Assembly: GCA_964578315.1 (NCBI GenBank)
Contig: CAZOCN010000001.1
Location: 1-38,300 of the forward strand
Reading direction: 5' to 3'
DNA: 38,300 bases
Source: an uncultured Candidatus Bathyarchaeia archaeon
Lineage (GTDB): Archaea; Thermoproteota; Bathyarchaeia; Bathyarchaeales; CAZOCN01
Under the pieces are notes generated by a model, which was not told the origin of the DNA, searched no databases, and was given only the letters and a program-made list of their open reading frames with translations. Below, piece by piece: positions 4,153 to 26,136 of this stretch (the first letter of the stretch is position 1; every line of letters starts with the position of its first letter). The translations under genes were made by a program, and so were the position numbers.

Positions 4153-4155
4153 AAT

Positions 4156-5310
4156 TTGGGGTTACAGGTAGTCCTTACTGCAGATAACCACCTTGACCCT
4201 CCGGCAGTAATGTTCGGTTCTAAAAGGTATGAACGGAAAGGCGACTTCCTCCGTTGCTTTGGGGAGGTTGTAGATTTCGCATTAGAAAACAAGCCGGATA
4301 TCTTTCTGGTCTCCGGAGACTTCTTCGACCATATACAACCTAGGAATCCCACACGTACCAGAATCATGGGTTACTTCAAAAGTCTTTACGACTCTGGAAT
4401 CAAAGTTTTCCTTATCAGCGGACACCACGATACTCCGAAGAGTGCTGAGCAGGGAATGTCCCCTCTAGCTGTCTACGGGAGATCAGGCTACGCCAAATAT
4501 TTCCAAAACTCGACACGATTGGAGTCTGTTTCCTTGGAGATAGATGGGCTAAAAACTATCATCTCAGGGATGAGTTATAATCCGACTTTATCTTGGGATG
4601 AAGACCCCTTAAAGGACGTGAAGTTACCCAAAGTGGGCGACGTCAATATTATGCTACTTCACTATCCGATATCAGGGTTTAAGGGCTATTACGCTAATGA
4701 ACCTAAAGTGCAGCCGGGGTCCATCCCAGCCGACCTTCAACTAGTCGCTGCGGGACATCTCCATTCGTACCAGAGAGAGAAGATCGGCGATGTGGAAGTA
4801 GTATACCCTGGGAGTACGGAGAGGGTGGACTTCTCTGAGGAGGGGGAGGAGAAGGGCTTCGTATGGTTGGAGCTGGATAAGTCTGGCGTAGTCTCAGAAG
4901 AGTTCATCAAAACGCATGCTAGGGAAATGAAGACTCTTGAGTATAAAGTGGAGAAGCGGGGGAAGATAAGCGATTCCCTAAAGAGCGCCCTTTATAAAAT
5001 CAAAGATCCGGAATTGATCCTCCGTGTACGTCTATTAGGGGAAGTCAGCGTCAAGCGTCTGAGCACCTATAGAAGGGCGGACATCCTATCCTTCGCAGAA
5101 GAGCTCTTCTTCACTTTACTCATAGATGAAAGTAGGTTGGAGATCGAGGATTTAGGAGCCCTCGAACCTCTTCCTCAGACTACCCCCTTAAAACAGTTAT
5201 CCTTTTACTTCCAGAAACGGATGGAGAAAGCTGAAAGTATGGAGAAGGCGCTTCTCCGTGAGGCTCTTAGGATCTGTGAGAAGAAGTTGCAGGAGGCTGG
5301 AGGATGGTAA
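4156..5310 (+). CDS. mre11: Mre11 nuclease (calcineurin-like phosphoesterase)
   Basis: The phosphoesterase motifs are present: I LTADNHLD, II VSGDFFD, III ISGHHD (normally GNHD), IV MLLHYP and V AAGHLHS. The TTG start lies 7 nt after GGAGGT and 3 nt after the herA stop. Confidence 0.9.
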   Translation: MGLQVVLTADNHLDPPAVMFGSKRYERKGDFLRCFGEVVDFALENKPDIFLVSGDFFDHIQPRNPTRTRIMGYFKSLYDSGIKVFLISGHHDTPKSAEQGMSPLAVYGRSGYAKYFQNSTRLESVSLEIDGLKTIISGMSYNPTLSWDEDPLKDVKLPKVGDVNIMLLHYPISGFKGYYANEPKVQPGSIPADLQLVAAGHLHSYQREKIGDVEVVYPGSTERVDFSEEGEEKGFVWLELDKSGVVSEEFIKTHAREMKTLEYKVEKRGKISDSLKSALYKIKDPELILRVRLLGEVSVKRLSTYRRADILSFAEELFFTLLIDESRLEIEDLGALEPLPQTTPLKQLSFYFQKRMEKAESMEKALLREALRICEKKLQEAGGW

Positions 5311-7622
5311 AGCTCCTGGAGGTTTACGCTTCTAACTTCAAAAAACCGGTTTTTGATAAGGAACTCCGTATGCCTGAAGGCGTTACCTTGATTTGTGGAC
5401 CGAATGAGAGCGGGAAATCGACGATATTGGACATTATACTCTACGCATTTTATTCGAGGGTGATAAGACCAAGCGCTAGACCCTCCGATGAAGATCTAAT
5501 CACTTATAGAAAGAGACATGCTAAAGTGAGAGTTCGCTTCTTATCGGGAAATAGGGAGCTCCGTGTTGAGAGAGACCTATACTTGAATAAACCGAATAAG
5601 GCTCGGCTTTGGATTAAGAAGGCTGATGGGAAATGGGAAGTAGCAGCTACTGGTCAGAGGCAAGTCACGGAGCAAGTTAAGAGATACTTAGGAGGGGTCT
5701 CCTTTCACGAGATGGTCGCCAGTAACGTAGTCGCCCAGAAGGACCTAGAGCACCTCGTGGAGCAGGGTAGAGAGGATAGAATCAAAGTTGTAAACGCCTT
5801 CATGAACCTTGACTGCTTCAACACAGCCTTGAAGGACTTAAATGAGGAACGAAGAAACCTCGAGGGAACCCATAGTAGACCTGGAAAATTAACTCTGGAA
5901 AGGCAGAAACTCGAAGAGTTACAACGGAGACTCGAAGAGTACAGAGAGAAAGAGAGGGAATTCAAGAAGTTAGAGAAGAGTGTTCAATGGCTTGAAAATG
6001 AAGTTAAGCGAATCGGTGCAGAATTGGAGGAGACAACAAAACTCTACACTTCTCTAGAAGCCTATAAAAAAGCCCGTGATAGGAGAAGGCAGCTGAGCCA
6101 GAATATCGACGCTCAGAAGAAGCTTCTGAGAGAACTTGAGAGCCGCTTGAGGGAGCTTGAAACCGTTGAGAAACGCCTTGAAGAGACGCAGAGAGAACTT
6201 GCCGGGTTCTCTGATCTCGAGAGCGCAGAGAGAGTGTTAATGGAGGTCGAAGAGATGAAGGGGCAAGCCTCACGTTTAACCATCAGAAAGGAGGAGGTTG
6301 GGAAGAGAGTTGAGGAAGTCAGAGGGGCTATAGCTCAGCTGGAAAGAGAGCTTTCAGGTTTCGACAAGAAGAAGATTGAAGGAATCAAGCGGAGGAGGCT
6401 GTTAACGTGGCCGTTGCTTATAGGCGCTGTGATCTGCTTCTTAGCCGCCTTCGTAATGCTGAGTATGAACCTGCCCCAGTTTATGGCAGTCGGAGTGGTC
6501 CTTGTAGGGATTCTCCTCATCGTATCTATGGCATACCAGATCTCTATGGAAACGAAAGCTAGGCTTCTGATCTCCAAGGTTCAATCTTTGGAGGATCATC
6601 AGAAGACTCTTCAGTCGTTAACTGGTGAAATCGAAGCCTTGGAAAGCGATCTCTCCAAGTTAACAGCGGAAGCCCTTGAAAGATGCAGAAGCATACGTCG
6701 CTATGCAGAGTTGATGGAAGGGCGGCGATGGGAGAATCTGGAGGAGGCGGTGAGTCAACTATCACGTCTCCTTGGAAGCGACAAGGAGAAGGTTAACAAC
6801 TTAAAGGAGAGGATGAGAAACCTCAAGTCTCAACTGGAAGGGAAATCCTCTCTTGAAAAGAAAAGAGAGAGATACCTTAAAGAGTTGGAAGAACTCGAGA
6901 AGGAAGCTAAGGGAATAGTCTTTCCAGAGCTCCCTGAAGGAGTAGTCTTCTCAGATGAGGTTTATGAAAAAACTAAAGGGTATAAAAAGGATTTAGAGAG
7001 TAACTTCACTCATAATAAAGCGCTTCTTAATGAACGGAGAACCCGGTTAAAGGAGATCTCGGATTTTCTAGTGAATAATCAGGAGGTTCCTGATAAGGAA
7101 AGGACTCAGAGAGAAGTAGTTGAGAAATTGGAGCGACGTGTTCAAGTTGTTAAGATAGCCATCGAAGCCTTAGAGAAGACTGCAGAGTCCCTACGAGAAC
7201 GCGTAAGGCCGAATGTGGAGAGGTATATGAGCCGCATCCTACCGAGCATAACAAATGGACGCTACCGAGCTGTGCAACTGGATGAGGACTACAACCTTAA
7301 GGTTTGGGATCCAGACGCTGGAGAGTTCAGGGCGAAGGAGGTCTTCTCTGGAGGAACGGAGGATCAGTTCCTCCTTGCCATGAGGCTGGCTTTCGCTTTA
7401 GCGTTGATGCCAGAGTCTAAAGGAACAAGCCCGGAGTTCCTCTTTTTGGACGAGCCTCTGGCGAGCTCTGACGCCGATAGAAGGGAAGGGATTATACGCT
7501 TTATTAAAGAGGATCTCTCCGCCAAGTTCAAGCAGATATTCATCATCAGCCACATCTCGGATCTAGAGAGCGAAGTGGATCACGTCATTCGACTCGAAGA
7601 CGGAAGAATACTCCAATATTAA
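5304..7622 (+). CDS. rad50: Rad50-type SMC-like ATPase, atypical: no zinc hook, central hydrophobic hairpin
   Basis: It has Walker A (GPNESGKST), a Q-loop (VVAQKD), long heptad-rich E/K/R/L arms, the signature motif FSGGTEDQ, Walker B (FLFLDEP) and an H-loop (IISHISD). Its ATG overlaps the mre11 stop (ATGGTAA). None of the four Cys residues forms a CxxC. Confidence 0.85.
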   Translation: MVKLLEVYASNFKKPVFDKELRMPEGVTLICGPNESGKSTILDIILYAFYSRVIRPSARPSDEDLITYRKRHAKVRVRFLSGNRELRVERDLYLNKPNKARLWIKKADGKWEVAATGQRQVTEQVKRYLGGVSFHEMVASNVVAQKDLEHLVEQGREDRIKVVNAFMNLDCFNTALKDLNEERRNLEGTHSRPGKLTLERQKLEELQRRLEEYREKEREFKKLEKSVQWLENEVKRIGAELEETTKLYTSLEAYKKARDRRRQLSQNIDAQKKLLRELESRLRELETVEKRLEETQRELAGFSDLESAERVLMEVEEMKGQASRLTIRKEEVGKRVEEVRGAIAQLERELSGFDKKKIEGIKRRRLLTWPLLIGAVICFLAAFVMLSMNLPQFMAVGVVLVGILLIVSMAYQISMETKARLLISKVQSLEDHQKTLQSLTGEIEALESDLSKLTAEALERCRSIRRYAELMEGRRWENLEEAVSQLSRLLGSDKEKVNNLKERMRNLKSQLEGKSSLEKKRERYLKELEELEKEAKGIVFPELPEGVVFSDEVYEKTKGYKKDLESNFTHNKALLNERRTRLKEISDFLVNNQEVPDKERTQREVVEKLERRVQVVKIAIEALEKTAESLRERVRPNVERYMSRILPSITNGRYRAVQLDEDYNLKVWDPDAGEFRAKEVFSGGTEDQFLLAMRLAFALALMPESKGTSPEFLFLDEPLASSDADRREGIIRFIKEDLSAKFKQIFIISHISDLESEVDHVIRLEDGRILQY

Positions 7623-7702
7623 AGCATCAAATGCGTGACTTTAGGGAGAACACCCCCTAGCCTTATCTATTTGGCACCTCAATTAACGTAAACTCTTTCT
7701 TT

Positions 7703-8485
7703 GTGTTACGCCTACTTACTAGGGTGAGGAACGGGTTGAAATTGTCTGAGCATGTGAAGATAATAGAGAAGGCTCCCGTAACGCCTGGGACGACCATGCT
7801 GTACGGGTTACCTGACGTTGGGTTGGTAGGTCTCATAGCAACTACCCATGTTAAATCCCAGAAGAAACTTACAGAAGTAGCGCAGTTAGATTCAGATTAC
7901 ATGCCGCCCATAACAGTCCTGCATGATGGATTACCTCATACACCCCTCCGCATCTCCAGTAATGGTTCAATAACGACGGTGGTCTCTGAAATAGCTGTGC
8001 CAGCAACGGCGTTGAGACCGATTATGAATGCGCTTCTAGAATGGAGCGTAGAGAAGAAAGTTGGGACTATAATATCGATCAGTGGAATACCAGTCCCTAA
8101 TAGACAGGAGATTAAGGAGCCTAGAGTCTTCGGCGCCGCTTCCACACCCCTCATGCTTAAACATCTAGAGGATAATGGGGTCAAAGTTCTGAAGGAAGGG
8201 TACATCGTTGGTCCAAGCGCCCTTATCTTAAGATACTGCGCTGAAAATAACGTTCCCGCCATCGTGCTCTTAGCGGAATCCTTCTACGGATTTCCAGACC
8301 CAGACGCCGCCGCAGCCGCCCTTACAGAGCTCTCGAAGATAACGGATGTCAAAGTTGACGTTTCAAAGCTGTTGGAGAAGGGGGAGGAGATAAGGTTGAG
8401 GACGAGGGACATGATGAGGAGGACGCAGAGGGAATTAACTGAGATGAAGAAGTCTCAAGAATACGATTTGCCGTTATATGTTTAG
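7703..8485 (+). CDS. PAC2-family proteasome assembly chaperone (PbaA/PbaB-like)
   Basis: The LYGLPDVGLVGLIA block is typical of PAC2/DUF75 proteins. The C-terminus ends in LYV, a hydrophobic-Tyr-X (HbYX) proteasome-docking tripeptide. TTG at 7736, 6 nt after GGTGAGG, is the more likely start. Confidence 0.7.
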   Translation: MLRLLTRVRNGLKLSEHVKIIEKAPVTPGTTMLYGLPDVGLVGLIATTHVKSQKKLTEVAQLDSDYMPPITVLHDGLPHTPLRISSNGSITTVVSEIAVPATALRPIMNALLEWSVEKKVGTIISISGIPVPNRQEIKEPRVFGAASTPLMLKHLEDNGVKVLKEGYIVGPSALILRYCAENNVPAIVLLAESFYGFPDPDAAAAALTELSKITDVKVDVSKLLEKGEEIRLRTRDMMRRTQRELTEMKKSQEYDLPLYV

Positions 8486-11506: not shown

Positions 11507-11956
11507 ATGACCTCCTATATTCCCCCAGCCGTTCTCGAGGAATTAACGCGTAACAGCCTAGCTAAAACGCGTTTGGAAGCCGCCATCAGAAGTGGGAAGG
11601 CTAAAGTTGTTATGCCGAGTTCAGAGGCGCTACTTGAGGTTAAGGATGCTTCGAGCCTTATGGGGGATTCCTACCTCCTTTCAGAGGCTGACATACAAGT
11701 CTTAGCGTTGGCCTTAGACCTCAAAAAAGAGGGAGACGACACCACTATAGTGACCGACGACTATTCTATCCAGAATGTAGCAGACAAGATCAGATTGAAC
11801 TACAAGCCATTGATCACCTTCGGAATACGGAAACGCATATTATGGAAGCGTTACTGCCCCGCCTGCTACAAGAGCTACCCTCAAGATTACCCGCATAGAA
11901 TTTGCCAAGTCTGCGGAACACCGCTGAAAAGGAAGCCGATAAGGAAAACCAGATAG
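11507..11956 (+). CDS. nob1: Nob1-type endonuclease (PIN domain + C-terminal zinc ribbon), 16S rRNA 3'-end maturation
   Basis: It has LSEADIQVLALA, IVTDDYSIQNVA and the zinc ribbon CPAC...CQVCG. Coordinates are from the first ATG. The conserved PIN first strand VIVLDTSS, with its catalytic Asp codon at 11462..11464, is encoded in-frame upstream, so the real start is probably near 11429..11453 (see finding). Confidence 0.85.
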   Translation: MTSYIPPAVLEELTRNSLAKTRLEAAIRSGKAKVVMPSSEALLEVKDASSLMGDSYLLSEADIQVLALALDLKKEGDDTTIVTDDYSIQNVADKIRLNYKPLITFGIRKRILWKRYCPACYKSYPQDYPHRICQVCGTPLKRKPIRKTR

Positions 11957-12048: not shown

Positions 12049-12813
12049 GTGAATGATGTGACGGCTGGTAAAATATCAACGCGGAAGGTGGCTCTATTGG
12101 CTGTTTTTATAGCGCTATCGGCGGTAATAGCGGAGTTTGTTCCAGGCATTCCAATAATTGGGGTCTCAGGCGCCAGTATAAAATTTGATGCTGCCATCGC
12201 GCCTATTTGGGGTCTGATCTTGGGGCCGTATCTTGGGGCGCTGGCTGGTTTCGTGGGAGGCGTGATAGTAGCTAGTAGTCCATTCAGTGTACTAACTTCG
12301 TTAAGTACAGGAGCCTCAGCTTTCGTCGCAGGCGCTTTCACTCAGGAGTATTTTCATTTTGGAAAGCGTAAGGTTAGAGGGTGGATCGTTGCAGCGCTTG
12401 TTCTCGGCTTTCTTATAGCTGGATGGTATGGGACGTGGATCGGGCAGAGAGCTCCTTTCTATCCTTCGCTCCATTTCCTAGGCCTCCTACTTATCCTAGG
12501 CGGAAGAGGGTCGGTAGCTAGATGGTCTAGAGAGAACAGCAAAGGGAAACTTTTACTCGCCGTTCCTCTGGCCAGTTACGCAGGCATAATATCTGATCAT
12601 ATGGTAGGGAATTTAGCCTTCATAACTTCGGTCGGTCTCTTCATTCAAATACCGCCAGAATTGGACCTACCAGCCCTCTTTATGGCCGTTATTCCGATCT
12701 CCGCCGTTGAGAGAGCGGTTCTCACTGCAATAGCTACTCTCATAGGAGTCAGCTTAATTCTCGCTCTCCAAAAAGCGGGACTTTACGTGAGAGACAGAAA
12801 TGGAGAGAACTGA
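12049..12813 (+). CDS. Polytopic membrane protein, ECF-transporter S-component-like (tentative)
   Basis: It has about 6-7 hydrophobic helices. The N-terminal pattern RKVALLAVFIALSAVI...GLILGPYLGALAGFVGG resembles substrate-capture S components. The assignment is by pattern only. Confidence 0.45.
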   Translation: MNDVTAGKISTRKVALLAVFIALSAVIAEFVPGIPIIGVSGASIKFDAAIAPIWGLILGPYLGALAGFVGGVIVASSPFSVLTSLSTGASAFVAGAFTQEYFHFGKRKVRGWIVAALVLGFLIAGWYGTWIGQRAPFYPSLHFLGLLLILGGRGSVARWSRENSKGKLLLAVPLASYAGIISDHMVGNLAFITSVGLFIQIPPELDLPALFMAVIPISAVERAVLTAIATLIGVSLILALQKAGLYVRDRNGEN

Positions 12814-12864
12814 AGAGAACAGCCCTTACGGATTCAGTTGCATCTTTAGATTGGAGGGTAATTT

Positions 12865-13878
12865 TTGTTTGTTGAAGCGCGAGAAGGAGATCTCATAGAG
12901 GTCTCTGAGGGAGCTTTATTCGACGTAAAGGGACTCGTCCATCCACCTCGTAGGGTAGTTGCATTCATCCGTTACTACCCCAATTCAAGAGGGGAGAGAC
13001 TTAAAGGAGGAGTTAGATTCAGTAAAGTCTACAGCCTCTCTAAACGGTACAACCTCCTAAAGGAGAAGTTTCCGCAGTACCTCGTTTACGATTCTGTTTT
13101 TGATGAGTGGTTATGCGAGGTCCCCCACAAGGATGTTGTAAAGCATTATAGACCTACGGAGTATTTACGAGAGTTAAGAGGGTCTGATGAACTAGATCCC
13201 ATAGAGAGTCTAGCTGTGGATTTAGCGGAGACCCTAAAAGAAGAGGCGAGGATTCCTTGGAGTGCTTTGGGAGTCTCCGGTTCAATACTCTCGGGCATCC
13301 ACAACAGAAAATCCGATTTAGATCTAGTGGTCTACGGATCGGATAACTGTCGGAGGGTATACGCCGCTCTCCTCGATCTAACTGAAAGGGGAAGAATGTT
13401 GAAGAGGTATGATATAGATGGTTTAAGAAGGCTTTACGCCTTCAGAGCGAAGGACAGTAAGGCGAGTTTTGAGGAGTTTTTGAAGACTGAGACTAGGAAA
13501 GTAATGCAGGGAATTTACCAGAATAGAGACTACTTCTTGCGTTTCGTTAAAGACTGGGGGGAAGTGGACGAGGAGTATGGAAGTATTAGATATAGAAGGC
13601 GAGGGCGTGCAAGATTGAAGGCGAGGATTGCGGATGATTCTGAGTCCATCTTTACTCCATGCAGATACCGAATCGATGAAGTAGATTTCATTGAGGGAGT
13701 GAAGGTAGAGCCTCTAGTGGAAATAGCCTCCTTCAGGGGGAGGTTCTGCGAGCAAGCGAGGGTGGATGAGTGGGTTATTGCTGAGGGCAAGGTTGAGATG
13801 GTACAGAGACTTAACGGGGAAGTCTACTATAGATTGCTCCTCGGAAACAGCCCCTTGGACCAGATGATACGTGCTTAG
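12865..13878 (+). CDS. Uncharacterised Pol-beta-superfamily nucleotidyltransferase with C-terminal OB-like domain, paralog 1
   Basis: The NTase motif LGVSGSILSGIHNRKSDLDLVVYG lies at 13270..13338. It shares an N-terminal block (EGALFDVKGLVHPPRR...KFPQY) and a C-terminal block (GRARLKARIADDSESIFTPCRYRIDE...EGKVE...YYRLLLG) with the next two genes. The TTG start lies 6 nt after GGAGGG. Confidence 0.7.
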   Translation: MFVEAREGDLIEVSEGALFDVKGLVHPPRRVVAFIRYYPNSRGERLKGGVRFSKVYSLSKRYNLLKEKFPQYLVYDSVFDEWLCEVPHKDVVKHYRPTEYLRELRGSDELDPIESLAVDLAETLKEEARIPWSALGVSGSILSGIHNRKSDLDLVVYGSDNCRRVYAALLDLTERGRMLKRYDIDGLRRLYAFRAKDSKASFEEFLKTETRKVMQGIYQNRDYFLRFVKDWGEVDEEYGSIRYRRRGRARLKARIADDSESIFTPCRYRIDEVDFIEGVKVEPLVEIASFRGRFCEQARVDEWVIAEGKVEMVQRLNGEVYYRLLLGNSPLDQMIRA

Positions 13879-14942
13879 CTCTTTACCACCTTTAATGTTT
13901 GCTCGTAGTATCGAGGACCATAAGATAGGGTTACTTGATAATAATTCTCCTTCGGAGCTTCAACTTTCTCCAGATGCCCCTCGACGTATACTGTCTCGTC
14001 CCGCCGTGCCTGCATTCTGAACTCCTCAACATAGGAGATGATTCTCCGAAGTTCTCCTCTAAAACCTGGGAAGTCTAGGGGTTCTATTTTGTATATGGAT
14101 GGAATGAAAGGAGCCTCTTCATCATCTATTATCCGGGCTCTCCCCTTTATCCATCCAACTTCACGTATCCTCATATCAGAGGAGTACTCATTCCGGATCT
14201 CGCCCCACTCTTTAACGGGTTCAAACTCGGTCTTTACAGTTCGCCCAGTTGCCTTGTCCCTGTAAAGGCCGTAGATCAATTTCCTTCTCTGGTGCCAGAT
14301 GTATTCTTTAACAGTTAAATTCTTGAACCTCCAATGCTTTCCCTCCATAACTCTCTCCTCCTCGAATTCGTTGCGTAAAGGCGTACTCTCCGCGTAGAAG
14401 TCTCTAAGAGCCTCTAGTAGTTTATCTAACCTCTCCTTTCCGTAGACTATTAGATCAAGGTCTGAGAAGGCTGGATGGTGGAAGCCGTGTAAGATGGAGC
14501 CGAAAACGCCTAGAGAGGACCCCGGAATACCAGCGTTGGATGTTACTAGGCGGTACAGGCTCTGTAAAGCCGCTATGAGAGGATCTTCTGCCTCCTGTTG
14601 GATCAGGTGGTTTAATCTCTCCTCGGGTTTAAGGGTCTTCCATATCTGGGATTCGCGGATTCCTACGAGAGACCTCTGGAGAGGCTCGTAAAATATTGTG
14701 TATTGGGGATACTTCTCTTTAACGAATCGGAGGCCCTCATCGGCGTAGAACTTGTAGTAAAGGAGGCCTCTCCCCTTCCTAATCGCTCGGGGGTCCTCCG
14801 TTCTGTAAATCTTAGAGGAGGCGTATTCCACATCGCAAATATAGGCTCTAGGAGGATGAAAGTACCCATATACCCTGAAGATCAAGCCTTCCCTAGTTAA
14901 TACGGTGTCTCTGTCCCTCAACCTCATCTTTAGAACTCTCAA
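13875..14942 (-). CDS. Uncharacterised Pol-beta-superfamily nucleotidyltransferase with C-terminal OB-like domain, paralog 2
   Basis: The NTase motif LGVFGSILHGFHHPAFSDLDLIVYG lies at 14439..14510. It has the same N-terminal block (REGLIFRVYGYFHPPR...KYPQY) and C-terminal block (GRARIIDDEEAPFIPSIYKIE...EGHLE...YYQVTL). ATG at 14927 is the likely start. Its stop overlaps the stop of paralog 1 (cTTAg). Confidence 0.7.
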   Translation of the reverse strand: MRVLKMRLRDRDTVLTREGLIFRVYGYFHPPRAYICDVEYASSKIYRTEDPRAIRKGRGLLYYKFYADEGLRFVKEKYPQYTIFYEPLQRSLVGIRESQIWKTLKPEERLNHLIQQEAEDPLIAALQSLYRLVTSNAGIPGSSLGVFGSILHGFHHPAFSDLDLIVYGKERLDKLLEALRDFYAESTPLRNEFEEERVMEGKHWRFKNLTVKEYIWHQRRKLIYGLYRDKATGRTVKTEFEPVKEWGEIRNEYSSDMRIREVGWIKGRARIIDDEEAPFIPSIYKIEPLDFPGFRGELRRIISYVEEFRMQARRDETVYVEGHLEKVEAPKENYYQVTLSYGPRYYEQTLKVVKS

Positions 14943-14960
14943 GGTTTACGCTTTAAGAAC

Positions 14961-14990
14961 CTATTCCTTATTTTAATGTTTTTAACTTTC
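14961..14990. promoter_or_regulatory. AT-rich bidirectional promoter region between NTase paralogs 2 and 3
   Basis: The only AT-rich tract (CTTATTTTAATGTTTTTAAC) in the divergent spacer carries TATA-like octamers on both strands, about 30-45 nt from either coding start. Confidence 0.4.
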
Positions 14991-15101
14991 ATCTTAGGAG
15001 GGGATTAGGGGACGGAGAGAGGATTCAGAGACCGAGATTTCATAAGAACCAAGGAAGGCTTTTTCTTCTGTGTAGTCGGTTCTCTTCATCCGCCTGATCG
15101 G

Positions 15102-16061
15102 GTGATCTCTTACGTAAAGTACATCCCTGCCGTCAAGGGCCGTTGGTTTTACCGGGGTACTCCTTTGAAGAGAGTCCTAAAGAGCTATACTATACCAAGT
15201 CTCCTAGAGACTTTCACTCTTCTTAAGGAGGAGTCTCCGCATTATACGTTCCACTCGGAAGTTTACGGAATAGAGATGAGTGCTGTTCCGCGAGATTACA
15301 TCTCCAAACATTACTTGCCAGAGGAGAAGTTGAAGGCTATCTTCCGCCTACCCAAACCTGATAGGCTACAGAAGGTAATCATCGAATTAGTCTCCCTATT
15401 ATCTGTGAGGAGTGGAATACCGATCTCAGAGTTTGGGATAACCGGCTCCGTACTCCTAGAGATCCACAATCCCGAATTCTCAGATATCGACCTCACAGTC
15501 TATGGTAGAGAGAATAGTGCGCTTTTGAAGAAGACCCTTAGAGAGGAGAGCATAGGGCGTCTAGAGGGGAAGGAACTTAAGGATTGGTGTAAACGTAAAA
15601 CTGAAAGATACCCAATTACACTTAAGGAGGCACTGATTATTTACAGAAGGAAATGGAACATCGGAAAGTTTGAGGGCGTAAACTTTTCTCTTCATCCTGT
15701 AAAAACAGAAGAAGAGCTAGAAGAGAAATATGGCGATAAGATTTATAGAGCTTTAGGTGAAGTCACTATTGGCGCAACAGTCTCTGAAGATCTAGACAGT
15801 ATGTTCCTACCTGCGGTCTATAAGGTTGAAGACGTCGATATTACTCGAGGAGAAGCTATCGGCGACATCAAAGAAGTGGTTTCCTATGAGAGCCTTTACG
15901 CGGATATAGCCACAGAAGGGGAGAGGATCAAGGTGCGAGGGAAACTTGAGGAGGTAACGGAGAAGAAGAGCGGTAAGGTTTACTACAGGGTCCTCGTCGG
16001 CTCCCCTCAGGGGAAGGGAAGAGAATACATAAAACCTATATCAGACCGAGTTTTCAGTTGA
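15102..16061 (+). CDS. Uncharacterised Pol-beta-superfamily nucleotidyltransferase with C-terminal OB-like domain, paralog 3
   Basis: The NTase motif FGITGSVLLEIHNPEFSDIDLTVYG lies at 15435..15506. The C-terminal block is GEVTIGATVSEDLDSMFLPAVYKVED...RGKLE...YYRVLVG. Coordinates are from the first canonical start (GTG). Family-conserved sequence FRDRDFIRTKEGFFFCVVGSLHPPDR continues in-frame upstream to 15009 (see finding). Confidence 0.7.
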   Translation: MISYVKYIPAVKGRWFYRGTPLKRVLKSYTIPSLLETFTLLKEESPHYTFHSEVYGIEMSAVPRDYISKHYLPEEKLKAIFRLPKPDRLQKVIIELVSLLSVRSGIPISEFGITGSVLLEIHNPEFSDIDLTVYGRENSALLKKTLREESIGRLEGKELKDWCKRKTERYPITLKEALIIYRRKWNIGKFEGVNFSLHPVKTEEELEEKYGDKIYRALGEVTIGATVSEDLDSMFLPAVYKVEDVDITRGEAIGDIKEVVSYESLYADIATEGERIKVRGKLEEVTEKKSGKVYYRVLVGSPQGKGREYIKPISDRVFS

Positions 16062-16082: not shown

Positions 16083-18818
16083 ATGTATGAGCGGCCTAGA
16101 CCGTCCCTTTGGAGATTCCTCTGGATTCTTATCCTAATCATTGCACTTGCAGTCCTCTTCACTTCTTTATCGATATACATAAACTGGACGGTCACCGCTT
16201 CTATGTACGAAGATAAAGCCGGGATAGACTGGTTCGGAACAGTCTTTTATTACAATTGGACTTTCATCCTCGCCGCTATACTCGCCCTTCTCGTTATCAA
16301 CCCCTTACCGGGGAGAAGCGATCTCTATGGCATTATAGAGGCCTTCACAGAGTTCAGAGCACGGTATGTAGAGGAGGAAGGAATCCGGCCAGTTTTCTCT
16401 TTTAGGAAAAGAAGGCTAATTTGGGGGTTTTGGCAGTTCTTCAAATGGACTATAGCTTACGCGGTTATAGTCTCAACAAATGGAATCCCTACTGTAGGTC
16501 CTTTCACGCAGACATTCTACATGGCGTTGAAGGGAATTGGCGATTGGGGTCTACTCCCTAGAATTTTCTTGACGCCGTTACTCCCTCCATCCAGTGAGGA
16601 ACTGGTGAAGTTGATGCCCTCTATGGAAATTCAGTATTGGATAGTTTATTCTCTAGTACGCGTCGTCCTCACGATAATAGTAGTTAGATTTCTGCTTAAG
16701 CTGATAAAGTCATTCCTGTATGAAGAGAAGGGACTATGGATCAGAAACATCTTTGTCATGCTCACAGCCATAATGCTGACGGTAATATTTGGAGCCCCCT
16801 ACTGGAGAATGGACGTAACAACCCCTTACGTCTATAACATCTGCATCGCACTTTTCATAGCCTTCTTCATAATCTCGCTCAGCGCACATCTAGGGCACAT
16901 AGGAGTTAACTTATCTTTCGCAAAAAGGAAGAGACTACTATTCGCATCGGTCTCCCTCTTACTGATAGTCTTGATGATAAACACAGCCTTCATAGTGGGC
17001 TTCTGGGTAAACTGGAATAACAACTACATCCAATATGAGTGGGAGCCATTCTTAAGTAAACAGATTTATGTCACAAGATGGGCGGCAGGGATAAAGGATG
17101 TAAAGGAGGTTCCCATATCTGAGCTTCCAACTGGTAACGTAACTAAGATCGTCAATAAAGTTAGACAGTGGGATCAAACCGCTGCGTACACGAAGATGAA
17201 GAATCAGATAGGTGTGAACTGGATGACCCTCGCCGACTCTGATATTATCTATTTAAAGGGGAGGGAGTTCTGGGTTGCTCCCACAACCATCTCTTATCCA
17301 CGCACAGACTGGATAAGCACTCACCTAATCTATACACACGCTTCTAAGATCATAATCGTAGATAGCCATACTGGAGAGTTCGTAGGTATAAAAGAGGCTT
17401 TCGGGCTCCCAAAGGAGCCACTCATATACTACGGAGAAGGCTTCAGAAACAACGTCTACGTTAATGTAAAGGGCTTTGATGAGATAGGGAACGTCACGTA
17501 CCCCGACAAGCCGGATTACGTACTTTCAGGATGGCAAAGAATGTTATGGTTTTTGATGGATGGACAGTTAGGCTTCGCCTTCACTCCTCCTCAAGAGGAT
17601 ATAAACATGCTCTACAATAGGGATGTCATCAATAGAGTAAAAACGGTGCTCATAAGTGGTCTCAAACCAGACTCGGATACCTACATAGTAACCGATGGGA
17701 AAAGGGTTTACTACGCTGTCCAAGTTCTGATAGATTATCCCATGCATTCCGGTTTCGCCGCGAGTAATTACCTCCGCTATTTTGCAGTAGTTCTCGTAGA
17801 TATCGAGAACGGATCTATGCAGGGTTACGCTATCTCTGAACCCGACAACTTCCTTTCCTCCTTCTATAGAGAGTACTACCCAAGCTGGAATAACCCTCCA
17901 CCAGACTGGCTTATCCCTCAACTGAGATATCCGGAGGCCTTGCTGGGCAAAAGACAGGAGCCGGGGCAACTAGATGTAGATTTCAAGTATCATGTAAATG
18001 ACCCCTTCATCTGGAGGTCGGGCTCAGACTTTTATGAGAGGCCTGAATCCACTGAAGTTCACTACATTCTAATGACCGAAGATGACATAACGCGCTTCAT
18101 AGGTCTACAACTTGTGGAGTTTGAGGTCTCTCCGGGAAAGAATTTAGCTGGGATGTACATCGCTTATAGCGGAGAAAAACTTGGAGAGCTATATCTTTAC
18201 CACGTGGTGAACTCCACTTCGCAATACATAGGACCTAGAGCCGCTCTGCAAGCCCTTGAAACAGACGACGCTGTCAGAGAGCAGTTGACCTTCATAAAGA
18301 ATTACAGACACGGGAACATCCTTCTTTACTCAATAGGGGGGGAACTGTACTATTTCATACCGATCTACGTGATAACCGAGCAGGCTGGCGGAGTTATCAC
18401 TAAACTTGCCTTTATCGTCACCATAGATGCCGCCACTGGAACAAAAGTAGCTATGGGAGAAAACTCAGCCTCAGCTTACTACACCCTTGTCGGCGGGACA
18501 CCTGTAGTGCAACCCGGCGTAAAAGACAGGTTAAATAAAACCATGAACCTCTTCTTGCATTCTGGCTTAAAACTTATTAAACCATCCAAAATCAGCGGCA
18601 ACGTGGAGATATTGGTAGCCAACCTCACCTACACCAAGGAGGCTCAATGGGATGAGACGAAATCCGTGTTAACCTCTTTCATTGAAGATTACGTGAAAGC
18701 GGAGGGGAAAAGGGAGGTTTACTATTGGATTTCAGAAGGGAACAAAATAAACTTCGGCATTTTACTCTCGGAGGAAAATATAGTAAAACTTTACTATATC
18801 TCAGTAAGATACCTCTAA
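16083..18818 (+). CDS. UPF0182 (COG1615) family large membrane protein
   Basis: It has seven N-terminal hydrophobic helices followed by a soluble domain of about 600 aa. The C-terminal blocks LRYPEALL, YHVNDPFIW, NLAGMYIA, IGPRAALQALETDDAVREQLT and GNILLYSIGGELYYFIPIYV match my recollection of UPF0182 consensus blocks. Confidence 0.75.
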   Translation: MYERPRPSLWRFLWILILIIALAVLFTSLSIYINWTVTASMYEDKAGIDWFGTVFYYNWTFILAAILALLVINPLPGRSDLYGIIEAFTEFRARYVEEEGIRPVFSFRKRRLIWGFWQFFKWTIAYAVIVSTNGIPTVGPFTQTFYMALKGIGDWGLLPRIFLTPLLPPSSEELVKLMPSMEIQYWIVYSLVRVVLTIIVVRFLLKLIKSFLYEEKGLWIRNIFVMLTAIMLTVIFGAPYWRMDVTTPYVYNICIALFIAFFIISLSAHLGHIGVNLSFAKRKRLLFASVSLLLIVLMINTAFIVGFWVNWNNNYIQYEWEPFLSKQIYVTRWAAGIKDVKEVPISELPTGNVTKIVNKVRQWDQTAAYTKMKNQIGVNWMTLADSDIIYLKGREFWVAPTTISYPRTDWISTHLIYTHASKIIIVDSHTGEFVGIKEAFGLPKEPLIYYGEGFRNNVYVNVKGFDEIGNVTYPDKPDYVLSGWQRMLWFLMDGQLGFAFTPPQEDINMLYNRDVINRVKTVLISGLKPDSDTYIVTDGKRVYYAVQVLIDYPMHSGFAASNYLRYFAVVLVDIENGSMQGYAISEPDNFLSSFYREYYPSWNNPPPDWLIPQLRYPEALLGKRQEPGQLDVDFKYHVNDPFIWRSGSDFYERPESTEVHYILMTEDDITRFIGLQLVEFEVSPGKNLAGMYIAYSGEKLGELYLYHVVNSTSQYIGPRAALQALETDDAVREQLTFIKNYRHGNILLYSIGGELYYFIPIYVITEQAGGVITKLAFIVTIDAATGTKVAMGENSASAYYTLVGGTPVVQPGVKDRLNKTMNLFLHSGLKLIKPSKISGNVEILVANLTYTKEAQWDETKSVLTSFIEDYVKAEGKREVYYWISEGNKINFGILLSEENIVKLYYISVRYL

Positions 18819-18822
18819 TGCA

Positions 18823-19125
18823 ATGAGTAAAAGTAAAATGATGGAGGAAGAGTTCTCACTCTGGCTGAAAACAAAGTTCACAGATTACTTCTGGATAAGA
18901 GGGCATAAGTTTGGTAAAGCAGAAGGGAGCAAAGTGAAGATAGACAACGGTCTCTTCACTCAAGAGGAGGCGGCGGAAATTTTTTCCATGTTAACTTCGA
19001 AGAACCCAATTAATAGATGGAATGCTATGCTTCTAATTTGGGAGAGAAACGGCACTCTCCTTAAAGTTCTAGTGGTGGGCTCCTTCATTCTCCTTCTATT
19101 TATCTTTTTGATAACACGCAGATGA
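18823..19125 (+). CDS. Small tail-anchored membrane protein, unknown function
   Basis: It is 100 aa, with a soluble N-part and a single C-terminal helix (LLKVLVVGSFILLLFIFLI). It starts 4 nt after the UPF0182 stop, and its stop overlaps the next start (ATGA). I recognise no family. Confidence 0.55.
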   Translation: MSKSKMMEEEFSLWLKTKFTDYFWIRGHKFGKAEGSKVKIDNGLFTQEEAAEIFSMLTSKNPINRWNAMLLIWERNGTLLKVLVVGSFILLLFIFLITRR

Positions 19126-22791: not shown

Positions 22792-23784
22792 ATGCGGAAA
22801 AAGGCTTTCCTGTGGATTCTTATAGCTGTATTAATAGCAGTTCTGCTTGTAGCTGGTGTGAATTACTATGTTACCACTGTAACATCCTCCTTTAAGAGGA
22901 GGCTTGTAATTTCAACGACTACAAGTCTATTCGATACTGGTCTCCTAGACCGTATAGAGGATCGCTTCGAAGCAGAGTATCCCATAGACTTGTATTTCAT
23001 ATCCGTCGGAACTGGACTGGCGATAAAATTCGCTCAGAGGGGAGATGCTGATATGATACTGGTGCATGCGCCTCCGTTAGAAGAGGAGTTTCTGGAAGGG
23101 GGTTATGGGGTTTGTAGAAAGATAATTGCCTATAACTTCTTCTTTATAGTTGGACCGGACTCGGACCCGGCGGGGATTGAGGGCTTATCGCCGGTGGAGG
23201 CATTAACTAGAATTGTGGAGGCGGGAAGGGCGGGAAAAGCTGTCTGGGTTTCTAGAGGGGACAATTCCGGGACGCATTCTAAGGAGAAGGCTTTATGGAG
23301 AACGGCGGGTTTCGAGTGGGAGGAGTTAAAGGAAGAGGAGTGGTATAGGGAGTCTGGTACGGGTATGGGAAAGACGTTGCAGATTACAAATGAGTTCTCG
23401 GCTTACACCCTCACCGATACGGGTACATATCTGAAGTACAAGAAAGAGGAACTGATCGACCTCGTCCCTCTCGTTGAGGAGGGAGAGGAGCTGATAAATG
23501 TTTACAGCGCAATAGCCGTTAATCCTGCTAAGCATTCTGAGGTTAACTTTGAGGACGCTATAACCTTCATAAAATATTTAATTTCTGATCAAGGACAGCA
23601 AGTAATAGCCAATTATGGGAAAGACCAGTACGGCACAGCGTTGTTTAACCCAGTGGTTCAACTACTGAAGAATAGAACAGATCCCAAGTTGGTGGAGTGG
23701 ATTGAGAATTACGCCTTCTTTAATGGTTCTGAGTGCCCACAAGAATACAGAGACGATCACTGGGAGATGTACAATCAAAAGTAA
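22792..23784 (+). CDS. tupA: Tungstate ABC transporter substrate-binding protein
   Basis: It has an N-terminal signal-anchor helix. The TupA signature ISTTTSLFDTGLLD is present, together with VSRGDNSGTHSKE and YTLTDTGTYL. Confidence 0.85.
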   Translation: MRKKAFLWILIAVLIAVLLVAGVNYYVTTVTSSFKRRLVISTTTSLFDTGLLDRIEDRFEAEYPIDLYFISVGTGLAIKFAQRGDADMILVHAPPLEEEFLEGGYGVCRKIIAYNFFFIVGPDSDPAGIEGLSPVEALTRIVEAGRAGKAVWVSRGDNSGTHSKEKALWRTAGFEWEELKEEEWYRESGTGMGKTLQITNEFSAYTLTDTGTYLKYKKEELIDLVPLVEEGEELINVYSAIAVNPAKHSEVNFEDAITFIKYLISDQGQQVIANYGKDQYGTALFNPVVQLLKNRTDPKLVEWIENYAFFNGSECPQEYRDDHWEMYNQK

Positions 23785-23802
23785 GTTGAAGAGGAAGAAT
23801 CG

Positions 23803-24510
23803 ATGAACGAGATAGTTGAGGGCTTGTGGAAGGCTTTGGAGTTAATCTTCACGGGAAACCCAGCGTTGGTGGCGATAACTTTTAGGGCGATTCTGGTTTC
23901 GGGCTCCGCGACGTTAATTTCGGCCCTTTGGAGCATCCCCCTCGGAGTCCTACTTGGACTCAGAAGGTTCAGAGGGAGATTCCTCATTAAAGGCTTCTTT
24001 AACGCTATGTTAGGTATACCAACAGTGACCTTAGGATTGATTCTCTACTTAATCTTTTCAAAGTCTGGTCCCTTAGGTGCACTCCACCTTCTTTATACAC
24101 CCACTGCGATAACAATCGGACAGGCGATACTGATAACGCCGGTTATAGTTAGTTTCACGATTAATTCCATAGAGATGGTGGACCCTGAGATAAGAGAGCT
24201 GACGAGGACTTTGGGAGCTTCTGAATTTCAGAGTTCTATAACTGTACTGAGAGAGTCTTTGAGTGGGACGTTTCTGGCTGTAACTGCAAGTTTCAATAGG
24301 GCGATTGCGGAGTTAGGCGTTGCCTTGATGGTGGGCGGCAACATAAGGGGCGTCACAAGAGTTCTAACTACTACGATAGCCCTAGAAACAGCCCGTGGGG
24401 AGATAGTGCTTAGCATAGCTTTAGCGCTAATCCTTCTATTCATCGTATTCGGGGTCAGCCTAACAGTGAACCTCCTCCAAAGACACTTGGGGTGGAGTGG
24501 AGGGAGATGA
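23803..24510 (+). CDS. tupB: Tungstate ABC transporter permease
   Basis: It is a multi-helix BPD-type permease with an EAA-like loop (ELTRTLGASEFQ). It sits between tupA and tupC. Confidence 0.8.
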   Translation: MNEIVEGLWKALELIFTGNPALVAITFRAILVSGSATLISALWSIPLGVLLGLRRFRGRFLIKGFFNAMLGIPTVTLGLILYLIFSKSGPLGALHLLYTPTAITIGQAILITPVIVSFTINSIEMVDPEIRELTRTLGASEFQSSITVLRESLSGTFLAVTASFNRAIAELGVALMVGGNIRGVTRVLTTTIALETARGEIVLSIALALILLFIVFGVSLTVNLLQRHLGWSGGR

Positions 24511-25556
24511 TAGAACTCCGCAATGTTACTGTAAAATACGGAGACCTAACGGCACTGGAAGATGTAACTCTCTCTGTACATGAGGGGGAATTCTTCACCA
24601 TCGTTGGGCCGAATGGCTCCGGTAAAACCACAATGCTAAGGGTTATGGCGGGGTTAGAGTATCCAACGAGGGGGGAAGTCCGTTTTAGGGGGAAGAAGAT
24701 AGATAAGAGTACTCTCGAGATGCTCAGAGCGAAGAGTACACTAGTGTTCCAGAAGACTGTCATGTTTAACACTTCAGTCTTCAAGAATGTGGCTTATGGT
24801 CTTAAAGCTAGGGGATTCTCAGAGGAGGAGATACGGAGACGAGTGAGAGAGGCGTTGAAGGTTGTTAAGTTAGAAGGGTTTGAAGATAGACACGCTAAAG
24901 CTTTATCCGGGGGAGAGCAACAGAGGGTCTCTCTCGCTAGGGCGATGGTTTTGGGGACTGAGCTTCTACTCCTCGACGAGCCTACTGCTAATCTAGACCC
25001 AAAGAACGCCTCTATAATCGAGGAGGCTATAGCTTATATTAGGGATAAGAAAGGGGTCACAGTTGTCATGTCTACGCATAATATGTTCCAGGCTAGGAGG
25101 CTGGCTGAACGGGTTGCAGTAATCATTGATGGAAAAATCCGGCATATTGGATACGCAGATGAAGTCTTTGGGGAGCCCTCTGATTATTTGGCGAGTTTCG
25201 CGAGGTTAGAGAACCTCTTCTCGGGGAGTGCTAGAAGTTTAGAGGACGGAACCTCCGTCGTCGATATAGGAGGCGTGGAAATAGTAACTGTCTTTCCACA
25301 TAAAGGAAAAGTTACCCTATTCATCCGTCCAGAAGACATAATACTCTCAAGGAAACCCATAATCTCAAGCGCCAGAAACTCTTTCAAGGGGAAGATAACT
25401 GAAATCTCTGATTTGGGGAATCTAGTCAGACTAAGAGTAGAGGCTGGAAGAAAATTCACTGTGCAGATAACTAAACGCTCCTTTATAGATATGAACTTGA
25501 ATTTGGGAGAGGAGGTATTCCTCGCTTTTAAAGCTTCTTCCGTAAGGGTGGTTTAG
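24492..25556 (+). CDS. tupC: Tungstate ABC transporter ATP-binding protein with C-terminal TOBE-like domain
   Basis: It has Walker A (GPNGSGKTT), signature LSGGEQQR, Walker B (LLLLDEP) and a C-terminal KGKITEISDLGNLVRLRV TOBE pattern. ATG 24507 overlaps the tupB stop (ATGA) and is the likelier start. Confidence 0.85.
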   Translation: MEWREMIELRNVTVKYGDLTALEDVTLSVHEGEFFTIVGPNGSGKTTMLRVMAGLEYPTRGEVRFRGKKIDKSTLEMLRAKSTLVFQKTVMFNTSVFKNVAYGLKARGFSEEEIRRRVREALKVVKLEGFEDRHAKALSGGEQQRVSLARAMVLGTELLLLDEPTANLDPKNASIIEEAIAYIRDKKGVTVVMSTHNMFQARRLAERVAVIIDGKIRHIGYADEVFGEPSDYLASFARLENLFSGSARSLEDGTSVVDIGGVEIVTVFPHKGKVTLFIRPEDIILSRKPIISSARNSFKGKITEISDLGNLVRLRVEAGRKFTVQITKRSFIDMNLNLGEEVFLAFKASSVRVV

Positions 25557-25560
25557 AGAA

Positions 25561-26136
25561 ATGCAAGAGACCTCGGAGAAGGATAAGATGCTCCGGCCCA
25601 GTTATAAGCTATGGTTTGAGACTAGAAAGGGCTATGCCTTCGGAAAAGGCACCTTCCGGCTCCTCCAGAAGATTCAGGAGGCAGGTACCTTAAGCGATGC
25701 CGCTAAGGAACTGGGAATGTCCTACCGTTACGCCTGGGGAATAATAAAGAGAACTGAGAAGCGCATAGGGAAAGCCATAGTTAAAACCCATAAGGGCGGT
25801 AAGAGAGGTGGAGGAGCGGAGTTAACTCAAGTGGGAAGAGAATTATTGAATGAATTTTTGAAGTATAAGAGAGTCTTTGACAATGTTTATCTAGACGAAT
25901 CTAGCTGGGAGGGATTACACTTGAAGATAAGTGCTAGAAACAGAATAAGAGGGAGAATAACCTCAATAGAGAAGGGAGACGTCGCGGCTGTGGTTAAGAT
26001 TGAGATAGAAACTCCCTGCACCATAACATCCTTCATCACAAGAGAAGCCGTAGAGGACCTTAATATTAAAGAAGGAGACATAGTAAAAGCTGTAATAAAA
26101 TCTACAGAGGTAATGATCTCCAAAGACAAAGAATAG
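25561..26136 (+). CDS. ModE-like regulator: winged-helix N-domain plus single Mop/TOBE molybdate/tungstate-binding domain
   Basis: The N-terminal sequence FRLLQKIQEAGTLSDAAKELGMSYRYAWGIIK...GGKRGGGAELT is ModE-like. The C-terminal sequence SARNRIRGRITSIEKGDVAAVVKIE is a Mop/TOBE signature. Confidence 0.75.
   Translation: MQETSEKDKMLRPSYKLWFETRKGYAFGKGTFRLLQKIQEAGTLSDAAKELGMSYRYAWGIIKRTEKRIGKAIVKTHKGGKRGGGAELTQVGRELLNEFLKYKRVFDNVYLDESSWEGLHLKISARNRIRGRITSIEKGDVAAVVKIEIETPCTITSFITREAVEDLNIKEGDIVKAVIKSTEVMISKDKE

Follow-up and report, generated by a model that had tools for sequence, protein, structure and literature searches.

Methanogenesis, anaerobic methane oxidation, and the archaeal Wood-Ljungdahl pathway all use methanopterin as their one-carbon (C1) carrier, and this molecule ends in a ribitol-O-alpha-ribofuranosyl-5-phosphate that is phosphodiester-linked to (S)-2-hydroxyglutarate. 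We know of no genes assigned to the late steps that build this end, namely the addition of the alpha-ribosyl 5-phosphate and the linkage of the hydroxyglutarate, in the years since biochemical work of the 1990s outlined the pathway. Comparable chemistry is known from the CitG/CitX and MdcB/MdcG systems, in which CitG moves the ribosyl 5-triphosphate part of ATP onto a hydroxyl with inversion, giving an alpha-glycoside and free adenine, after which CitX and MdcG spend the triphosphate on a phosphodiester bond to the hydroxyl of a serine, with the release of pyrophosphate. Here, we describe three adjacent genes for paralogous nucleotidyltransferase (NTase) proteins, designated P1, P2, and P3, in a 38,300-nt stretch of DNA (the window; contig CAZOCN010000001.1, positions 1 to 38,300) from an uncultured Candidatus Bathyarchaeia archaeon. 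They belong to the family of Methanocaldococcus jannaschii MJ1086, which probably has its place in methanopterin-type pterin metabolism. We regard it as an even bet that its paralogs act on small molecules in the biosynthesis or the salvage and rebuilding of a methanopterin-type pterin cofactor, and not on nucleic acids, by a CitX/MdcG-like transfer that follows a CitG-like enzyme.

As in the CitG/CitX and MdcB/MdcG systems, relatives of the window carry a CitG-family gene paired with a nucleotidyltransferase-type gene, although the window itself is without the CitG-like gene, and the predicted logic is shared, that is, an ATP-derived alpha-ribosyl 5-triphosphate is formed and a phosphodiester is then made on a hydroxyl with the release of pyrophosphate. 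Unlike CitX and MdcG, however, the MJ1086-type proteins are about 340 aa long, have an extra N-terminal barrel and an OB-like domain, and are not sequence members of those families; no acyl-carrier or lyase genes lie near them, and their transfer is predicted to run from a pterin conjugate to a small hydroxy-acid. With the MJ1086 proteins of methanogens, the paralogs have in common the family, the three-domain layout, and all motif residues. Unlike the methanogens, which have one family member per locus examined, Bathyarchaeia have three or four clustered paralogs with an S-component-like partner.

A sequence-only reading of the window had singled out the three ORFs as paralogs with a common layout of three blocks, and both points hold: the ORFs lie where they had been placed, except that P3 extends upstream of the listed GTG 15102, and the blocks are visible in the alignment of P1, P2, and P3. 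The coordinates given for the NTase motif are also correct, 13270 being G136 of P1. Full-length BLASTP comparison gave identities of 32% for P1/P2 (E 4e-41), 31% for P1/P3 (E 2e-49), and 30% for P2/P3 (E 3e-33); the earlier figure of roughly a quarter was therefore too low, whereas the description of the paralogs as old is borne out by the ortholog groups, P1, P2, and P3 each having its own with 50–60% identity across Bathyarchaeia. Every close homolog bears a Bathyarchaeia label. A profile search of 1.84 billion representative proteins returned 1,614 clusters at E <=0.001 and 535 at <=1e-30, and one matched cluster includes M. jannaschii MJ1086 (UniProt Q58486, “uncharacterized protein”). P0379, the representative of the 90%-identity cluster of MJ1086, is 33–34% identical to P1 and P3, and orthologs are found in Methanococcales, Methanobacteriales, Methanomicrobiales, and Hydrothermarchaeota at 45–89% identity to MJ1086. 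Bathyarchaeia hold four ortholog groups, P1 to P4, of which P4 is missing from the window. A neighbor-joining tree resolved the P2 and methanogen clades (99–100%) and left the deep order unresolved; P3 and P4 share the derived loss of R45, K54, and Q297, residues that P1, P2, and the methanogen proteins retain. Judged from these comparisons, P1, P2, and P3 can be regarded as old paralogs of the MJ1086 family that have been kept together.

The hG[GS] plus [DE]x[DE] signature of the Pol-beta superfamily is represented by G139-S140 and D151-x-D153 in P1, P2, and P3 alike. Motif conservation was counted in 453 homologs, comprising 120 of P1, 120 of P2, 35 of the P3 type, 58 of the P4 type, and 120 from methanogens, and the four residues of the signature were 99–100% conserved among them. 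The positions of G-x-x-G-S ... S-D-x-D-x-x-x-Y-G were 98–100% conserved in the five groups, the exceptions being Y157 (P3 type) and G158 (P2 type). E233 (P1 numbering, as below), which was conserved at 88% in the P3 type and 97–100% in the other four groups, is a candidate third catalytic carboxylate, and in the OB-like domain P265, Y268, G308, and E311 were conserved at 99–100% and S289 at 88–100% in all five groups. None of P1 to P4 looks like a dead copy, all keeping the catalytic motifs, in agreement with what had been claimed for the three in the window. The Pfam model NTP_transf_2 (PF01909; gathering threshold 21) matched P2 with 24.5 bits, P3 with 21.6, and P1 with 19.0, just under the threshold, and no other Pfam match reached gathering. 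NCBIfam has no model for the MJ1086-type family, and searches of the PDB sequences with profiles of 3 and 67 sequences gave no meaningful match. Family members carry the Joint Genome Institute label “predicted nucleotidyltransferase”, and our literature search found no paper on MJ1086, COG1665, or CitG/NTase in methanopterin biosynthesis, most subscription journals being outside its scope and a prior proposal being possible. The family had been called uncharacterised, and we found no specific Pfam or NCBIfam model, PDB sequence relative, or paper to the contrary. In an AlphaFold2 model of P1 built with 88 homologs (predicted local distance difference test score 95.5; predicted template modelling score, pTM, 0.92), the protein is composed of a small N-terminal beta-barrel, a Pol-beta NTase palm with helices resembling that of poly(A) polymerases (PAPs) and terminal uridylyltransferases (TUTases), and a C-terminal OB-like barrel. 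We consider this a distinct and uncharacterised architecture inside the Pol-beta NTase superfamily.

To examine the gene neighborhood, 80 species-representative Bathyarchaeia genomes were scanned by tblastn mapping, and the loci with enough flank were counted. The recurrent order was mch-fwdCABD ... CitG-like(-) / S-component-like(+) P1(+) / P2(-) P4(-). The CitG-like gene stood divergently beside P1 in 57 of the 70 loci with at least 2.5 kb of left flank, and mch and fwd lay beyond it in 32–34 of the 48 loci with at least 9 kb; of the pterin-linked genes, only these were nearby in Bathyarchaeia. Between the CitG-like gene and P1, 53 of 61 loci had an ORF of 230–350 aa, which encoded a multi-transmembrane protein with 4–9 hydrophobic segments in 52 of the 53, and in some loci Mer-like genes were present between the S-component gene and P1; the CitG-like gene and P1 were directly divergent, 86–282 nt apart, in 8 loci. 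Among 67 informative loci, P2 was near P1 in 54, P4 in 53, and P3 in 4. P2 and P4 converge on P1, and P3 diverges from P4. In a scan of P3-type genes in metagenomes, another paralog lay at most 1.2 kb upstream in 56 of 72 loci (P4 in 50), fwd and mch were often downstream, and all 23 loci with at least 6 kb of flank held at least one other paralog type, with 11 of them holding all three. The closest relative (L096; 68% identity) repeats the P2(-) / P3(+) UPF0182-like(+) order of the window, and four loci (L111, L130, L150, and L167) have the order CitG-like ... P1, P2, P3 without P4. Since the module of the relatives consists of four paralogs and P4 is missing here, the window represents a P4-less variant of a conserved four-paralog module. 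Thus, the cluster of three that had been described is real in the window but is usually a cluster of four in relatives; the paralogs and the S-component-like gene are conserved neighbors, neither dispersed nor single-copy, and the expectation of a conserved neighborhood was correct.

Several further features of these loci were observed. P4 (L003 10083-11123; L001 12409-13428; many loci from L004 to L175) is normally located between P2 and P3 and is often translationally coupled to P2 with a 0–4-nt overlap, and a second S-component-like gene (ECF_trnsprt) adjoins P4 in L001 and lies beyond mch in many loci. Immediately past P4, L003 (11221-12249, plus strand) has an ORF of 161 aa of unknown nature together with MobB, and L052 has, between fwdD and the CitG-like gene, a 305-aa ORF (6858-7775, minus strand) without a Pfam or NCBIfam match, which was detectable in only 2 of 48 loci. 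Three contigs labelled as metagenome-assembled genomes of bacteria (L036, L057, and L070; Acidiferrales, Krumholzibacteriaceae, and Acidoferrum) show Bathyarchaeia-type P1-P2 synteny, with a P1 that is 52–54% identical to that of the window, and L036 and L070 additionally carry the CitG-like gene and P4. All three are probably archaeal contigs that were binned wrongly.

The CitG-like protein matched the Pfam CitG model over its full length (E 1e-69) and was 27% identical to Escherichia coli CitG across the last 106 residues, and on the CitG/MdcB equivalog models it scored about 44–50 bits versus cut-offs of about 270–280. By these scores, it represents a subfamily separate from bona fide CitG and MdcB. 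In methylotrophic bacteria, the island linked to tetrahydromethanopterin (H4MPT) has the order mch-orf5-orf7 (PMC3615186), and in Methylomonas mch is followed by an alpha-L-glutamate ligase gene and then by a gene annotated as triphosphoribosyl-dephospho-CoA synthase (PMC11533326). On the basis of these islands, we take the CitG-like subfamily to be “Orf7” of the methanopterin-linked C1 islands.

Outside the Bathyarchaeia genome-scan set, there were eight distinct contexts (L085 and L086 repeat the M. jannaschii locus), four of which contain established methanopterin biosynthesis genes and one more of which is suggestive. Locus L087, with a P1-like gene at 33% identity, has the order CitG-like / NTase-DUF447-FMN_red-AfpA-beta-RFAP synthase family-DHPS-like-...-Mer-like, in which the NCBIfam matches were all above cut-off (AfpA, TIGR02699, 235 bits; beta-RFAP synthase family, TIGR00144, 178 versus 113.5; DHPS-like, TIGR00284, 376 versus 257). 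Locus L093 (P1-like, 34% identity) comprises genes for CitG-like, MCH, PTPS, GTP cyclohydrolase (PF02649), DUF447, DHPS-like, NTase, RFAP-synthase-like, DUF1464, and Mer-like proteins, and in L094 the P3-type gene adjoins GCHY-1 and a DHPS-like gene and has a further member of the family upstream. In L089, a FolK-type HPPK (TIGR01498, 149 bits versus a cut-off of 54) is fused to a P1-clade NTase in a single protein of 505 aa (P0274), and the fusion gene is followed by genes for an AfpA/DmrX-like flavoprotein and a DHPS-like protein. Furthermore, in a Hydrothermarchaeota locus (L092), a chorismate-lyase-like gene lies 20 nt downstream of the NTase gene, 4-hydroxybenzoate being the arylamine precursor. 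L088 showed no obvious context. The named sources of the homologs are all methanopterin-using archaea, namely, Methanococcales, Methanobacteriales, Methanomicrobiales, Hydrothermarchaeota, and Bathyarchaeia.

The assignment to methanopterin is based on the CitG-like partner, the mch and fwd genes beyond it, the L087, L093, and L094 clusters, the HPPK fusion, and the methanopterin-using hosts. We infer the pathway, the specific step, and the roles of the paralogs and of the membrane protein from the homology, motifs, folds, neighborhoods, and fusion described here. In the proposed mechanism, the CitG-like “Orf7” would first use ATP to place a 5-triphospho-alpha-ribosyl group on the ribitol hydroxyl of a pterin-arylamine intermediate, with the release of adenine, and the NTase would then treat the resulting triphosphate like an NTP, transferring the phosphoribosyl-pterin to the hydroxyl of (S)-2-hydroxyglutarate to give the phosphodiester and pyrophosphate. 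By analogy, this two-step CitG/CitX logic, applied to a pterin-arylamine-ribitol intermediate, would give exactly the methanopterin tail, and the same scheme would explain the presence of Orf7 in bacteria that make dephospho-H4MPT. The co-transcribed S-component-like protein may supply the pterin or an acceptor precursor, and P2 and P3 (and P4 elsewhere) may form hetero-oligomers or may use different acceptors or donors to give a modified side chain. That the MJ1086 family itself catalyzes the phosphodiester-forming step has, on this analogy, at best an even chance of being correct. More tentatively, and with the odds somewhat against it, the family could be the missing enzyme for the methanopterin phosphodiester tail, and the clustered Bathyarchaeia paralogs with the S-component-like protein could build or salvage a different, possibly more elaborate, pterin C1 carrier.

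Several observations weigh against this interpretation. No CitG-like, mch, fwd, or pterin gene is present within the 38-kb window (tblastn for the CitG-like gene), and the pterin link thus rests on relatives. Most of the counted loci come from one class, Bathyarchaeia, and part of the synteny is therefore inherited. In Methanobacteriales (L090 and L091), the NTase gene is divergent from DUF366-PTPS-radical SAM, and the PTPS and small radical-SAM genes are equally readable as 7-deazaguanine genes; in M. jannaschii, MJ1086 lies between MJ1085 (unknown, 4-nt overlap) and MJ1087 (GHMP kinase), an uninformative context. The resemblance to the CitX/MdcG side is also faint: the MdcG holo-ACP synthase model was the only one of 18,950 NCBIfam models to recur weakly across the family (8 of 67 members, best E 0.0046), which speaks indirectly in favor of a CitX-like step, but its match, at 13–14 bits versus a cut-off of 126, is far sub-threshold, and a comparison of the family profile with E. 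coli CitX detected no relation (hhalign probability 0.5%). The nearest solved folds are RNA-specific enzymes (PAP, Cid1, and GLD-2) and OB domains that bind ssDNA or tRNA. Finally, the apparent need of Bathyarchaeia for three or four active paralogs is left unexplained by the pterin interpretation. As a separate observation on the M. jannaschii locus, MJ1085 (L084 8475-10004) encodes 509 aa with no Pfam match and with many K-x-A-x-x-x-G-F-x-D-A-x-E-Y-like repeats.

The alternative that survives best, which we nevertheless consider unlikely, retains pterin cofactor metabolism and assigns the family to another step, in which it would adenylylate or guanylylate a phosphate or carboxylate for a second transferase, as in CofC/CofD, or would attach a nucleotide to a pterin taken up through the S-component-like protein and so keep it in the cell. 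It draws on the same gene-context evidence, the classical NTase motifs are compatible with ordinary NTP use, and the S-component-like gene, co-directional and 51 nt before P1, is conserved in the 53 of 61 loci mentioned above. On the other hand, it makes no use of the close divergent arrangement with the CitG-like gene, the product of which would already bear a triphosphate, and no second transferase recurs in the neighborhoods.

An action on nucleic acids, by contrast, had been proposed from the combination of NTase and OB, the family being seen as terminal nucleotidyltransferases whose OB-like domain grips the end of RNA, tRNA, or ssDNA for tailing, repair, or modification; we now think this improbable. 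The strongest points in its favor are structural. In Foldseek searches, the catalytic half resembled yeast and mammalian PAP, Cid1, GLD-2, Tut1, and ANT(2'') (probability <=0.9, E >=0.03, query-normalized template modelling score <=0.29), the best palm match being yeast PAP (E 0.03, probability 0.90, root-mean-square deviation [RMSD] about 9 A). The C-terminal 100 residues resembled the OB barrels of SSB, PriB, RPA, and the anticodon-binding LysRS N-domain (probability 0.85–0.99, target-normalized score 0.46–0.60, E about 0.03 or worse), so that an OB-like C-terminal domain had been rightly predicted at the level of fold; the first 55 residues of P1 gave low-probability SH3/Sm-like matches only. 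As in PAPs, Cid1/TUTases, GLD-2, and class I CCA-adding enzymes, a GS ... DxD palm is followed by a helical region, and in the window a gene for a PIN and zinc-ribbon protein lies two genes upstream. However, neither the full-length model nor that of residues 1-240 (predicted local distance difference test score 95.1) matched any PDB entry at E <=0.001, the likeness being that of generic NTase and OB folds with a palm RMSD of about 9–10 A. Unlike RNA nucleotidyltransferases, to which the matches are weak, the family lacks a PAP-associated or RNA-binding domain and has different flanking domains and a cofactor-biosynthesis gene context: Pfam found no PAP-associated or CCA head-neck-body domain in P1, P2, or P3, and the sole trace of a PAP-type domain was a sub-threshold MTPAP-like_central match in P1 (E 0.04, 14.4 bits versus 27). 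The OB domain had been likened to that of TiaS, which is also an archaeal multi-domain enzyme with an OB-type domain; this relationship was rejected, as TCKD, FLD, tRNA_anti-codon, and Zn ribbon, all four recorded for the TiaS gene of L084, are absent from P1, P2, and P3 by Pfam, and TiaS was not among the best 50 Foldseek matches listed. OB folds also bind small ligands or mediate oligomerization, and the invariant residues of the OB domain, together with a model that forms one rigid body (pTM 0.92), would point to a ligand pocket common to the family more readily than to a general appendage for binding nucleic acids. Furthermore, RNA-processing neighbors do not recur in 160 Bathyarchaeia loci or in the other lineages, whereas the CitG-like gene, mch/fwd, and methanopterin genes do, and an RNA role would not easily account for the HPPK fusion.

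A function as true CitX/MdcG-type holo-protein synthases, in which the CitG-like enzyme would make triphosphoribosyl-dephospho-CoA and the NTases would attach it to serines of carrier proteins, is very improbable despite the adjacent CitG-family partner, the recurring sub-threshold MdcG matches, and the possibility that several paralogs pair with several acceptor proteins, because no CitD/MdcC-type acyl carrier, citrate lyase, or malonate decarboxylase is found among the annotated neighbors (L001, L003, L052, L087, and L093), the CitG-like protein, at about 50 bits, stays far under the cut-offs of genuine CitG/MdcB (about 280), the same CitG subfamily occurs in the H4MPT islands of methylotrophs, and hhalign shows no relation between the family and E. 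coli CitX. Homology to CitX was rejected on the last result and on the lack of a Pfam CitX (PF03802) match; a defense role as a CBASS-like NTase was rejected on the lack of a PADLOC match for P1, P2, and P3; and a molybdopterin-nucleotide role, considered on account of the nearby fwd, MobB in L003, and the molybdenum/tungsten transporter of the window, was dropped in favor of methanopterin, to which the HPPK fusion and the neighboring beta-RFAP synthase, DHPS-like, and CitG-like genes point.

The pairing of a CitG-like protein with an MJ1086-family protein, with a defined chemical prediction, makes the gap in the late methanopterin pathway directly testable with two recombinant proteins. If the prediction is true, the family could serve as a marker for full versus dephospho methanopterin, and the expansion of paralogs marks Bathyarchaeia out as probably having a cofactor variant that is not yet described. 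Should RNA tailing prove correct instead, the family would constitute a new terminal transferase, widespread in archaea; in either case, a conserved “hypothetical” protein known from model methanogens would acquire a function.

Table. Positions of the paralog genes, their catalytic motifs, and adjoining elements in the window
Feature	Position	Strand	Remarks
ECF S-component-like membrane protein	12049..12813	+	254 aa, about 5 hydrophobic segments; same strand as P1, 51 nt 5' of P1
Paralog 1 (P1)	12865..13878	+	337 aa; TTG start behind GGAGGG at 12853-12858
P1 catalytic motif G136-x-x-G139-S140 ... S150-D151-x-D153 ... Y157-G158	13270..13338	+	
Paralog 2 (P2)	13875..14942	-	355 aa from TTG 14942, or 350 aa from ATG 14927
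P2 catalytic GS ... SDLD motif	14439..14510	-	
P2/P3 divergent spacer, AT-rich	14943..15011		GGAGG at 14997-15001 before presumed P3 start
Paralog 3 (P3)	15012..16061	+	about 349 aa if the start is ACG 15012; listed ORF 15102-16061
P3 catalytic GS ... SDID motif	15435..15506	+	

In the window, P1 and P2 converge, and their stop codons overlap in cTTAg, as had been noted, with the TAG of P1 at 13876-78 and the TAA of P2 (minus strand) at 13875-77. P1 is identical to a public protein (P0121). For P2, the 350-aa form is the one in the public gene call (P0001), and an exact look-up of the 355-aa form among public proteins gave no match. The conserved N-terminal block of P3 (FRDRDF...G..HPP) is encoded 5' of the listed GTG 15102, in frame from 15009, after a TAG at 15006-8, and there is no ATG, GTG, or TTG in this frame between 15009 and GTG 15102, the first canonical start, the use of which would cut the block away. 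P3 orthologs begin with M-R-G-F-R-D-R-D, and the window has ACG 15012, 10 nt past the GGAGG, at the position of the ortholog ATG; P3 therefore has a non-canonical start, a start-codon lesion, or an assembly or sequencing error.

The upstream membrane protein had been called S-component-like, and this is supported by two Pfam matches of energy-coupling factor (ECF) type above gathering, ECF-ribofla_trS (37.1 bits, E 4e-9, cut-off 26.7) and ECF_trnsprt (33.3 bits, E 6e-8, cut-off 30.7), in addition to a weak match to the folate-family S-component TIGR04518 (E 1e-7, under its cut-off); no EcfA/EcfT energizing module is present among the annotated ORFs of the window. Downstream of P3, positions 16083-19125 (plus strand) encode a 911-aa multi-transmembrane protein, followed by a 100-aa protein and a DHDPS-family gene. 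This protein had been called UPF0182, which is reduced to a distant partial match (NCBIfam PRK00068, 54.9 bits versus a cut-off of 995; no Pfam match), and its place next to P3 recurs only in L096. An Rfam scan of the window from 10 to 20 kb gave no match, and a sigma-70 promoter and terminator scan, a model not applicable to archaea, gave counts not above those of shuffled sequences.

At the site where relatives carry the CitG-like gene, the window has genes for a NAD kinase and a PIN protein. The latter (11507-11956, plus strand) combines a PIN_6 domain with a C-terminal double zinc ribbon and matches a PADLOC model annotated “poss. crRNA proc.” (E 8e-12). Elsewhere in the window, a complete NurA-HerA-Mre11-Rad50 operon is followed by PAC2, Hsp20, deoxyhypusine synthase, and aIF5A genes (1191-7622, plus strand), and the regions 22792-26136 and 32846-34705 encode a molybdate/tungstate-type ABC transporter (periplasmic-binding protein, permease, and ATPase with TOBE), a ModE-like regulator, and an aldehyde:ferredoxin oxidoreductase.

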